Shown: piece by piece, positions 37,583 through 40,500 of the stretch
Numbering within the stretch: the first letter of the stretch is position 1
Layout: every line of letters starts with the position of its first letter
Assembly: GCF_056746865.1 (NCBI RefSeq)
Contig: NZ_CM163382.1
DNA: 64,000 nucleotides
Strand: one strand, 5' to 3'
Position numbers and translations under genes: made by a program
Notes under the pieces: model-generated
Database searches by the model: none
What the model saw: the letters and a program-made list of their open reading frames with translations, nothing else
Told to the model about the DNA's origin: nothing

Positions 37583-40500
37583 CTACCATTTCACCGTCAT
37601 CGACAAAAACCCTGCCGTCTGGGCAAAATCATCACTCCCTTTCTGCCACGCCACGTTACCACGCAGGGACACTCGCTGACTGATATTGCCCGTGACTCCC
37701 ACTTTTATTTCACCCCGTTGCTTCACCGCATCGTCACTGATAGTGCTGCCATCTTCTTCAATTTCCGTCGCATGGGGATCGTGATAATAATTCAGATCTA
37801 ATGTTGGTGTGACACCAACCGCGGTACGCCATTCGCTGTGTAAACCCAGCCGCGTCTGAATATCATCCCCCTGCGATTGTGACACGCGCGCATGGTTAGC
37901 GGCGGTAAAATCATCCTGCTGCACGCCCTGATAAATCACCTGCGCCTGCGGTTCAATCACCACACCACGCCCCGGTAACCACTGATACCCGGCTTCCAGC
38001 GAGGCGATAATCCCCGATGAGTGGTAATGATCCGCGCCATCTTCATGTTCGGAAACATCATTGTTAAACCACGCGTATTGCAGCCAGCTATCCAGCCAGG
38101 CCCCCTGCTTCTGATTACCGTGCTGAAACCAGCTTGAGGTCAGACCAACGGCATAACCGTGGTTCTGGTTATCGGCGCAAGTTCCGGTCATATTCGAGCG
38201 GCTGTCGCCCTGGTTATCACTGTAGCCACCAACCGCCCCAAGCATCCACTCGCCATCCGTGCCCCAGCGCCCGCTAAACAAGTCGCCGCTAAGCTGCACC
38301 GTAGAAGTGTCTTCATGCTGAGCCAGTTGCCCCGCTGCTGTGTAATGATAATCTCCGCCGATAACACGTAAATTCAGCGTCTGACCATTGCCACCAGCGT
38401 GATCGTGTCGCTCCATCACAAACGCCTGATTTGCCGCCCGCAGGTTATTAAAATATCCACCAACTTTGGCATTCAGCACCGGCTGGTAAGCAGGCGTAGG
38501 GTCTGGGTCGGGTGTTGGATCGGGATCCGGTGTGGGATCAGGATCGGGAGTCGGGTCGGGATCAGGTGGCGATGGCGGCGTTACTTCTTGCGATCGCAGA
38601 TACCAGTCGTTGTTATCTTCCACCAGCGTGTAGTCATACGCTCCCATATTGACGTAGCCACTACCTGCCAGACTGAACTGCGCATTGTTTTGAAACTGCG
38701 TGGGATCAGCTGCGAAATCAACCACTTTAATGCCTGTAGATGTCGGCTCACCAATACCCGTAATGGGATTAATTACCACGGTCGTGTTGCCAGCAGTATT
38801 ACCGTTCAACACCAGTTGGTCACTTGCCGAGTCATCGCCGTTTAATTCGCTATCGAGCAGTAGCGTACCGCCGCCGGTATAATCACCGTTTACCGTCAGC
38901 GTATCGCCAGCGACGCCATTTTGCAGGCTAACCGCACCGGACGTATTGGTCAGATTGCCATTAACCGTCACGTTGGAAAGATAAGTCAGGCTGTCAGTTT
39001 CAAGGTTGGTATTAAGCTCACCTGTCAACGTCACACCATCGGTGGCATTCACCAGCGTCCCATCGCCGTTAAACAGTGAGGCATTAAGGGCGACGGAAGT
39101 ATCCTGCCCGGTCAGGCGCAAAACCGTACCATCGCTGATGTCGATAGTGCCGCTGGAAGTAGCATCAATTGACTGAATATCCTGATCCGCGCCAGTCTTG
39201 AATGTTGCCCCGTCACCGACCCACAGCGACGAAGCATAAGGGAAGATATCCGCAACATCGCCTTTCAGGGTGCCTTCTTCGACACGTACCGCCGACTGCG
39301 TCGTACCGCTGGCGGTCAGTTCCAGCGTACCCGCCCCCGTTTTAGTCAATGTGCTACCCTCATCTTGATGCTGCCCGCTGCTGTCAGCCATCAGTCCGCC
39401 CCACTGCGTGTCTACCCCCGCATCAACTGCCACTTCACCGTCGGCGCGCATTTCAATATCACGCCCATGCTCAGTCGTTGTAGAGCGAGTATCGACATTG
39501 GCAGTAATCTCCATCACGCTTTCTTGTTGATTATCGGTAAAGATAACCTGGCGGTTGTAATGGGTATCTCCAAGCTGCGAGTTGTCGCTCACCACCAGCG
39601 TACCGGAAGCGATTTGCGTGGTGCCCAGGTAACTATTATTGTTTGCCAGGCTAACCAGCCCGTCGCCGCCGATATGCAAATTGTCGCCCCCTGCGAGATC
39701 CACCACATCCTGACTGCCGATAACCGTACCGCCGCTGCCGCTGACTGCAAGGCCATCGTTGTATGATGTGCAGCTCTGCCAGGTGGCGAAATCAGAGAGA
39801 TCAAGCACACCGCCGTTTAACACGATCGACTGCGGATCGTCCTGGAGAGCGGCAAGATCTGCCGCGTCGCCTTCCAGCGTAAGCACCGCGCCATCATCAA
39901 CGACTATATCGCCAGTTAGCGCCATCGACTGAGCCCCTGCCAGCACGTAGCTGCCGTTTTGCGCAATGGTGAGCTGACCAGCACCTTCGATGGTGCCAGC
40001 AAAACTGCCCTGATTAACAGTAACGTTGCCACCAGCATCGATATTTAAAGTGCCATTCTGAAAGCCCGTCAATGCGTGCACAAAAGTTTGTTGGGTCGAG
40101 CCAACGTTTAGCTCAGCCTGATTCTGATACTGATCAATACTCCCTATCGTCAGACCATAGCAGTCTTGCGGATCGTCCTGGCAATGCGTATCGCCGACAT
40201 TCATCAGGGAGTTGCTGCGGCCCAGGGTAACTTCACCGTTTTCTATCTGCATCTCACCAGTAAAGTCATTGTTATCTGCATTAAGTACCAGATCGCCGGA
40301 ACCTGTTTTGGTGATTACCCCGGTACCAGCAATAGAGTCAACAGCTCCGTCATTCTCTGTATTGCCGATAACCAGCGTTTTTCCGTCGGCAATATCAAAG
40401 GTAACTTCACTTAAGCCGAGATACATAAAGCCGCCCGCCGCAGTGGAAGGACCATCCCCATAACCTGCCGCGCTATTGTTCTCATCGATTAACACGCCGC

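Follow-up and report, generated by a model that had tools for sequence, protein, structure and literature searches.

The fourfold DPDPTP repeat encoded in the stretch of DNA analysed here (the window, 64,000 nucleotides at its full length) is real, and is an unremarkable proline-rich spacer that separates the passenger from the barrel of the autotransporter YfaL (Table 1). An exact four-fold hexapeptide cannot plausibly have originated by chance. We consider it quite probable that the account as a whole is right: a proline-rich spacer or tether, whose length evolves in steps of 6 and 18 bp governed by the likeness of its DNA units. A sequence-only reading of this region had reported an in-frame (PDPDPT)x4 repeat and had taken it for a proline-rich spacer between passenger and barrel, and both parts hold: translation confirms the repeat inside the 1237-codon open reading frame, and the block sits between the AC_1 domain and the helix and barrel. 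In the register used there the repeat occupies 38566..38495; the range given for it, 38494-38573, takes in the block as delimited in Table 1 except for the final two bases, and reaches a few bases into the PPSPP lead-in.

Table 1. Features of the yfaL gene and its linker, in positions of the window
Feature	Position	Strand	Details and evidence
yfaL/ehaC coding sequence, AIDA-I family autotransporter adhesin	37583..41296	(-)	1237 codons; ORF list and translation
Autotransporter β-barrel domain	37652..38371	(-)	aa 976-1215; Pfam PF03797, E = 4.5e-33; 12 strands in model
Predicted α-helix AKVGGYFNNLRAANQ, barrel pore plug	38426..38470	(-)	aa 943-957; AlphaFold2 model residues 163-177, pLDDT ~90
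(DPDPTP)x4 block	38492..38563	(-)	aa 912-935; four 18-bp units
PPSPP lead-in	38564..38578	(-)	aa 907-911; translation
Autochaperone (junction) domain, passenger C-terminal end	38624..38956	(-)	aa 781-891; Pfam PF18883 AC_1, E = 2.2e-18
Junction of 39-bp in-frame deletion, single retained GGCGACGGG	39659..39667	(-)	passenger, outside linker; protein and codon alignments

The assignment of the gene to yfaL, already made in that reading, is borne out by a match to the NCBIfam YfaL/EhaC equivalog NF007285 at 2748.3 bits (cutoff 1459), with a full-length alignment of protein residues 1-1237 on profile positions 1-1250. The AIDA-I model NF033176 scores 91.8 bits (cutoff 1200), and the profile matches identify the protein as YfaL, a relative of AIDA-I and not AIDA-I itself. 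Strain 118UI matches a 901-bp query from the yfaL region of the window at 100%, and its product of 1237 aa, annotated as yfaL in RefSeq, is 100% identical to that of the window by alignment. The gene is flanked in the window by the ORFs 36752-37522 (+) and 34026-36653 (-), and its position agrees with the gene order yfaL-ubiG-gyrA in the RefSeq records of K-12, 118UI and others. PATR repeats were found by Pfam search alongside PF03797 and PF18883, and a TIGR01414 match spans aa 794-1237. The AlphaFold2 model (pLDDT 78.7, pTM 0.78 overall) continues the β structure past AC_1 to WYLRS (aa 897-901), the last strand being model residues 117-121. Over its C-terminal 300 residues the model superposes on the AIDA-I structure 4MEE with a target-normalised TM-score (TMt) of 0.91 (rmsd 2.3 Å, 26% identity, E = 3.5e-27), and the best Foldseek matches of the model are 4MEE, EspP, BrkA, NalP and Hbp. 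The predicted architecture, with a 12-stranded barrel, a pore helix, an autochaperone and a β-helical passenger, is that of a classical (type Va) autotransporter.

The lead-in and the block together make up 29 residues, PPSPP(DPDPTP)4 (aa 907-935), of which 16 are prolines, with a proline at nearly every second position; the PPSPP site reads PPLPP or NPTPPP in some lineages. On the minus strand the block (38563..38492) reads GATCCCGACCCGACTCCC GATCCTGATCCCACACCG GATCCCGATCCAACACCC GACCCAGACCCTACGCCT, which translates to four copies of DPDPTP. The repeat had been called perfect, and so it is as protein but not as DNA: the four 18-bp units are 67-83% identical to one another with all differences at third codon positions, the longest exact internal repeat is the 9-bp TCCCGATCC at an offset of 24, and Tandem Repeats Finder reports a period of 18, 3.2 copies, 77% matches and a score of 67. 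In the AlphaFold2 model aa 902-940 are coil, with pLDDT <50 over most of aa 906-934, which is compatible with disorder or with an extended chain.

This acidic segment links the autochaperone end of the passenger to the predicted helix that passes through the outer-membrane barrel. Because proline occurs at nearly every second residue, folding into helix or sheet would be barred; the spacer is most likely an extended, fairly stiff tether of the polyproline-II type, ~9 nm long at full extension, and may keep the folded passenger away from the mouth of the barrel and the lipopolysaccharide layer. Its length would shift through the in-frame gain or loss of 6-bp (X-Pro) and 18-bp units, when short direct repeats misalign during replication or repair, and the frequency of such shifts would be set by the likeness of the DNA units.

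Two other features of the block were considered and set aside. The window has no denser cluster of Dam sites (GATC) than the one here, with five site starts in 43 nt (38518-38560). A role in regulation or in SeqA binding was considered for it and rejected, the cluster being explained by the Asp-Pro codons GAT-CCN. GAT accounts for 5 of the 8 Asp codons of the block, roughly the proportion expected from E. coli codon usage. Plus-strand ORFs over the block (38399-38845, 148 aa with a GTG start, and shorter ones) are mechanical antisense ORFs, without supporting evidence, in a strongly supported gene.

The lengths of 1237 codons here and 1250 in K-12 are both correctly given in the sequence-only reading; the shortfall had been cited there as consistent with length variation in this protein, and a link to the repeat is contradicted by the alignment, which puts all 13 codons in the passenger. 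The codons missing in the window are K-12 aa 544-556. They are enclosed in K-12, PEC399 and THO-008 by two copies of GGCGACGGG, 39 bp apart, and the K-12 linker block is likewise 24 aa long, with DPEPTP as its fourth unit. Linker variation is thus ruled out as the source of the difference, which is a 39-bp deletion between the two 9-bp direct repeats. Differences in the protein length of yfaL are not to be taken for linker copy-number change without an alignment.

Linker length across the species was surveyed with a linker-independent (flank-only) query, on 60 genomes taken at even steps from the 5,419 matching complete E. coli genomes. The block measures 72 nt in 40 of these (67%), 54 nt in 13 (22%), 78 nt in 3 (5%), 48 nt in 2 (3%) and 36 nt in 1 (2%), with one genome outside these classes; linker-containing queries of 901 and 401 bp gave similar proportions. 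The sequence-only reading had named one outcome as fatal to its proposal, the same copy number in every strain, and what was found instead is a spread of blocks from 36 to 78 nt. When read codon by codon, the alleles differ in length only by multiples of 6 bp; most of the length variants in E. coli are changes of -24 and +6 bp and not of complete 18-bp units, and the microhomology flanking these two is only imperfect. A related Escherichia sp. protein is longer by 12 bp (+4 aa), equivalent to a block of 84 nt. In Shigella sonnei the yfaL linker coincides with an assembly break, between ...GATCCTG and CGGCCCCTACG....

The best surviving alternative, which we hold to be possible yet clearly the less probable reading, is that the linker is a neutral filler of low complexity: a linker of ~12-28 residues would serve as long as it is proline-rich, or the gene would be largely cryptic, and length and sequence would drift. 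Blocks of 12-28 aa are indeed found in otherwise intact yfaL genes, and the alleles differ inside the block by E/D, P to Q (in O157), P to S and T to I substitutions and by an A/P insertion. Some yfaL genes are broken or internally shortened: that of strain C6 carries IS1 insertions, that of VTB97022v has lost 56 aa by deletion, and that of OkiPb01681 contains an internal stop. A search of protein databases with the last 457 aa as query yielded chiefly fragments and clusters at 90% identity; unfit for allele frequencies, it supplied further alleles and distant relatives of like architecture. These relatives (27-36% identity) bear on both sides of the question: they read NWYL, then (D/E/T/A/V-P)n, then RPEAGAY, so that unit sequences and lengths differ while the spacer itself is conserved at the same position. 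Against free drift, all alleles preserve the X-Pro alternation, with no indel departing from the 6-bp step, and the window retains four identical peptide units despite many synonymous differences, which suggests constraint on the peptide. The evidence against filler still leaves room for a length that is neutral within the observed range.

It is improbable, in our view, that the linker is a surface epitope under diversifying selection by immunity or phage, with changes in length and residues as antigenic variation. The model predicts the linker to lie outside the barrel at the cell surface, the first alignment of 12 genes had no more than two indel sites, of which the linker is one, non-synonymous variants are present in it, and the variation of pertactin falls mainly in its (GGXXP)n and (PQP)n repeats (PMC3279416). 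However, YfaL is not known to be an immunodominant antigen, its alleles are lineage-bound and not rapidly turning over, and access of antibodies would be doubtful so near the membrane, with a 900-residue passenger and the O-antigen above.

On the preferred reading of a tether whose length changes as its DNA units permit, lineages with similar and with diverged units should behave differently, and the yfaL linker presents both states. In the lineage of the window strain the counts indicate that linker length is probably fixed. The band at or above 99% holds 142 genomes with the flank-only query and again 142 with the linker-containing 401-bp and 901-bp queries (one of the 142 is labelled ST69), and all 60 of the best matches listed for the flank-only query span 872 bp, i.e. 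800 + 72. No length variant is indicated in this lineage, a statement that rests on the equal band counts for 142 genomes and the 60 listed rows of the same span and not on a reading of all 142 sequences. Since its DNA units are degenerate, the window repeat would be a poor slippage substrate; the same peptide units would have become a stable array, with a single lineage-wide length, because they diverged at synonymous sites. The fourfold perfection itself would be incidental, depending on GAC (Asp) in unit 4 where K-12, O157 and ST131 carry GAA (Glu).

The unstable state is seen in the DPIP allele family (strain W and STEC isolates), in which the unit GACCCAACACCCGATCCT is present once, twice or three times with exact repeats of 17-38 bp. 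Strain W has two copies, 2014C-3011 one and OkiPb01681 three, on ±600-bp flanks that differ by 1-3 bases only. Each of the four 1-copy alleles is accompanied by neighbouring markers (TCG/TTG, CCG/CCT) that belong to a different multi-copy haplotype, which points to independent origins; some alleles could have moved between backgrounds by recombination and not by recurrent slippage. Near-identical 18-bp units would here allow repeated change among one, two and three copies. Genomes with W-like flanks depart from two copies in ~12 of 477 cases, as compared to 0 of 142 variants in the window lineage, a marginal difference (p ~ 0.04 by a rough hypergeometric estimate). The earlier expectation of slipped-strand change thus applies to the DPIP family, where copy number varies, and not to the window, with its degenerate units and single indicated length. 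The stable and unstable states in different lineages make the yfaL linker a small natural comparison of repeat identity with instability: codon divergence can make a repeat slip poorly even where its peptide units are identical.

A more ambitious version, to which we give little credence, would have linker length as an adaptive 'stand-off' setting matched to the surface layer of the lineage (O-antigen chain length, capsule), with the DPIP alleles as a slow tuning device of one, two or three units and window-like lineages frozen by synonymous divergence. Less likely than this is a release of the passenger by cutting of the tether at gastric pH, at its eight acid-labile Asp-Pro bonds. Very improbable, finally, is a hypermutable contingency locus of the VNTR type, in which frequent slipped-strand mispairing would tune the display length of the passenger within populations: the array is tandem, in frame and of 18-bp period, E. 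coli has at least five length classes and the DPIP family has one to three copies on nearly identical flanks, but VNTR units are near-identical and those of the window share 12-15 of 18 bases with ≤9 bp of exact repeat, VNTR unit number differs among close isolates and does so only in the DPIP family and not in the 142-genome lineage of the window, length classes track the flanking haplotype across the species, even W-like flanks seldom depart from two copies, and 1-4 copies are too few for contingency-type rates. The generic E. coli MLVA loci CVN007 and CVN002 also have 18-bp units, with alleles of 1-4; their primers (PMC8143711) have no match in the window at ≤3 mismatches, and the yfaL linker is ruled out as either of these typing loci.

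YfaL/EhaC is an adhesin already annotated and widely conserved in E. coli, and its linker matters little for basic biology; we found nothing specific to this linker in the literature. Alternating X-Pro segments, such as the Glu-Pro/Lys-Pro repeats of TonB and the hinge of OmpA, are regarded as extended, rigid spacers that set a functional domain apart from its membrane anchor. Those spacers are periplasmic and belong to unrelated proteins, whereas that of YfaL is predicted at the cell surface, and the likeness is one of principle only. YfaL is in use as a surface-display scaffold (PMC13101318), for which the tolerated natural linker lengths of 12-28 residues offer a ready design range.

Among autotransporters the feature is of a known kind, both proline-rich spacers before the barrel and polymorphism of repeat number having been described already. 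The transport unit of YfaL resembles that of AIDA-I in its superposition on 4MEE, and YfaL is classed in NCBIfam among the AIDA-I family adhesins. In TibA, another E. coli autotransporter, an extra proline-rich domain (residues 627-677) follows the junction (autochaperone) region and precedes the C-terminal domain embedded in the membrane (PMC3835316). YfaL likewise places its proline-rich segment after the autochaperone and before the pore helix and barrel, although the TibA domain has ~50 residues as against 29, and the likeness is drawn from the published description of TibA. In the pertactin of Bordetella pertussis, the number of units in region 1, (GGXXP)n, and region 2, (PQP)n, defines alleles between isolates (PMC3279416). 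Both proteins have alleles that differ within the species in how many proline-containing units are repeated towards the C-terminal end of the passenger; the unit sequences, however, are unrelated, and the variation in pertactin is tied to allele shifts of the vaccine era, whereas the length classes of yfaL are old and lineage-bound.

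The gene matches the NCBIfam equivalog model for YfaL/EhaC, an adhesin of the AIDA-I family, from end to end (score 2748 bits, cutoff 1459), and is adjoined by ubiG and gyrA, the same arrangement as in annotated E. coli chromosomes. YfaL is an established adhesin and display scaffold (PMC7864753, PMC13101318, PMC9289746). A 901-bp query from this region finds the gene in 5,419 of 5,426 complete genomes, with a 100% match in strain 118UI, whose YfaL (1237 aa) is identical to the window's when aligned; one genome with flanks identical to the window's is labelled ST69. The gene is lost now and then: in strain C6 it is split and partly inverted between two IS1A copies, and in OkiPb01681 a stop codon lies inside it. 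The spacer to ubiG is 60 bp in the window, seemingly with a single REP-like palindromic element, and likewise in PEC399; in K-12, W, O157 and ST131 it is 127-140 bp, seemingly with two such elements.

Features of the yfaL region, in window positions
Feature	Position	Residues	Strand	Basis
yfaL ORF, 1237 codons	37583..41296		minus	ORF listing and translation
DPDPTP x4	38563..38492	aa 912-935	minus	translation
PPSPP, directly before DPDPTP x4		aa 907-911	minus	translation
Retained GGCGACGGG, junction of 39-bp in-frame deletion	39659-39667		minus	alignment with K-12 and other strains
yfaL-ubiG intergenic spacer	37523-37582			
GATC cluster	38518-38560			

In the coding direction the block reads GATCCCGACCCGACTCCC / GATCCTGATCCCACACCG / GATCCCGATCCAACACCC / GACCCAGACCCTACGCCT, and reading and translating it bore out the coordinates and peptide of the sequence-only reading; Tandem Repeats Finder reports period 18 with a score of 67. 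The four 18-bp units share 12-15 of 18 bases pairwise, all differences lie at third codon positions, and the longest exact internal repeat is 9 bp: the repeat is perfect as protein and degenerate as DNA. This bears on the slippage mechanism proposed for it, because slipped-strand mispairing requires identity of the DNA, not of the peptide. In K-12, O157, ST131 and the type strain the block also has 24 residues and its last unit is DPEPTP, with GAA where the window has GAC; judged by these alleles, the fourfold perfection is incidental. Five of the 299 GATC (Dam) sites of the 64-kb window start within one 43-nt stretch inside the block, the densest cluster in the window, because the Asp-Pro codons read GAT-CCN; no regulatory role is suggested.

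The length of 1250 residues given for K-12 YfaL is correct. The shortfall of the window's protein had been offered as consistent with length variation in YfaL, but the block is equally long in K-12 and in the window, and alignment places the 13 missing residues in the passenger, at K-12 aa 544-556, within GGDGKDGVYVVVDASDG; they are lost from a β-helix rung. Other strains read GGC GGC GAC GGG AAA GAT ... GCG GGC GAC GGG CTG here, with GGCGACGGG twice, 39 bp apart, of which the window keeps a single copy. 118UI shares this 39-bp deletion, which K-12 and most other strains lack; B2 strains and IAI39 differ at the site by two inserted residues. The difference is a typical case of deletion at short direct repeats and is unrelated to the linker.

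In Pfam the autochaperone domain spans aa 781-891, and the barrel aa 976-1215. Modelled with AlphaFold2 (12-sequence alignment, mean pLDDT 78.7, pTM 0.78), aa 781-1237 have β-strands as far as WYLRS (aa 897-901), coil at aa 902-940 with pLDDT below 50 across most of aa 906-934, and a confident helix at aa 943-957, after which comes a barrel of 12 strands; the modelled transport unit can be superposed on 4MEE, the crystal structure of AIDA-I (target-normalised TM-score 0.91, rmsd 2.3 Å). From these three lines the block is, as had been proposed, a spacer between passenger and barrel. Relatives of 27-36% identity have NWYL, a (D/E/T/A/V)-Pro dipeptide run of variable length and sequence, RPEAGAY and then the barrel; across them the position and composition of the spacer are conserved, and the exact repeat is not. 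Position, composition, predicted lack of fold and an architecture conserved in distant relatives are established for the block. A paralogue in E. coli/Shigella, itself an autotransporter (identity about 33%), also has an equivalent linker that differs in length among strains (TPDPEPTPTPTPTPDPDSKPE, TPAPEPTPTPDPDSKPE, TPEPTPTPDPDSKPE); hence indel-prone X-Pro linkers are not peculiar to YfaL.

Linker length does vary among E. coli; a copy number identical in all strains, which would have refuted the sequence-only reading, is not what the genomes show. We surveyed it independently of the linker, using a query of the 400 + 400 bp flanks alone, which avoids linker bias, and taking block length from the match span. 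An even-step sample of 60 genomes gave five length classes: 72 nt (40/60), 54 nt (13), 78 nt (3), 48 nt (2) and 36 nt (1), with one truncated match. Two further samples with linker-containing queries give the same picture: the window block's length in 41/60 (401-bp query) and 27/40 (901-bp query), -18 in 12 and 8, +6 in 4 and 2, -24 in 2 and 2, and another class in 1 and 1. Read codon by codon, the alleles are (DPDPTP)3 then DP[A/P]PDPTP in PEC399 and IAI39 (+6 bp), DPDPTP DPTP DPEPTP in THO-008 (-24 bp), DPDP DPTPDP DPTPDP IP in W and LD26-1 (-18 bp) and DPDP DPTPDP IP in several STEC isolates (-36 bp); an Escherichia sp. protein has a 28-residue version. All changes among the alleles read are multiples of 6 bp, so that the length polymorphism is in frame and never disturbs the alternation of X and Pro.

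In strain VTB97022v a 168-bp in-frame deletion, equivalent to window about 38530-38700 and lying between two copies of the 11-bp TGATCCCACGC, joins FAA|DPT of the autochaperone domain to linker unit 2, removing the end of that domain and half of the linker; the linker repeat can therefore also recombine with look-alike sequence upstream. Many Shigella sonnei draft assemblies break within the linker, whose first unit there is NPNPTP: left contigs end at ...GATCCCACACCGGATCCTG and right contigs, from different assemblers, all start at CGGCCCCTACGCCTGCTTAC. The draft contigs by themselves suggest an insertion sequence inside it.

The window's lineage, 142 genomes with near-identical flanks, does not bear out the proposed proneness to slippage. 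The flank-only query recovers 142 genomes at at least 99% identity and the linker-containing 401-bp and 901-bp queries again 142, while a single 6-bp indel would lower identity to 98.5% with the 401-bp query; the flank-only span is exactly 872 bp in 60/60 best matches listed. The simplest reading of these counts, as distinct from a reading of every sequence, is that the 72-nt block is common to all 142.

Copy number does change in the DPIP family, the alleles ending in IP, whose copies of the 18-bp unit GACCCAACACCCGATCCT are almost identical. Exact repeats here are as long as 17 bp (W), 20 bp (LD26-1) and 38 bp (OkiPb01681), compared with 9 bp for the window and 11 bp for K-12, and alleles of 1, 2 and 3 copies were found; W (2 copies), 2014C-3011 (1) and OkiPb01681 (3) differ by 1-3 bases over ±600-bp flanks. 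The 1-copy alleles, four of which were sequenced, do not group together as closest relatives. By two haplotype markers, TCG/TTG nine bases upstream of the block and CCG/CCT in its fourth codon, each goes with a different multi-copy haplotype, 2014C-3011 with W, MDP9-27 with LD26-1 and 2012EL-2448 with 2313; HCP6S3_I2 is apart from all of these. This pattern would fit several independent one-unit losses or gains; recombination is a possible source of it as well. Departures from two copies are infrequent even in this family, in roughly 12 of the 477 genomes that have W-like flanks, against 0/142 in the window's lineage, a difference only marginally significant (about p = 0.04, a rough estimate). 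Copy-number change is linked to DNA-level identity of the units.

As to function, the segment probably forms an extended, polyproline-II-like tether; such a helix rises about 3 Å per residue, or roughly 9 nm over 29 residues. It would keep the folded passenger at a distance from both barrel and lipopolysaccharide layer, and changes in its length would then alter display. It is also quite possible that the block is neutral filler within the 12-28 residue range seen.

The (DPDPTP)x4 linker is an ordinary feature of a known protein and has already been catalogued. The sequence-only reading was right in its observation and, in interpretation, on the spacer and on variation across the species; its 13-residue argument falls away, and the slippage it proposes is not borne out in the window's lineage. 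Two small things are added: a corrected explanation of the 13-residue difference, and one linker in two forms, DNA-degenerate and stable in the window strain versus DNA-perfect and copy-variable in the DPIP alleles. We found no description of YfaL linker polymorphism in the literature, and the linker is not among the 18-bp MLVA typing loci. Pertactin, another autotransporter, is a classic case of repeat-number alleles; its variation is 'mainly limited to' two repeat regions, (GGXXP)n and (PQP)n (PMC3279416).
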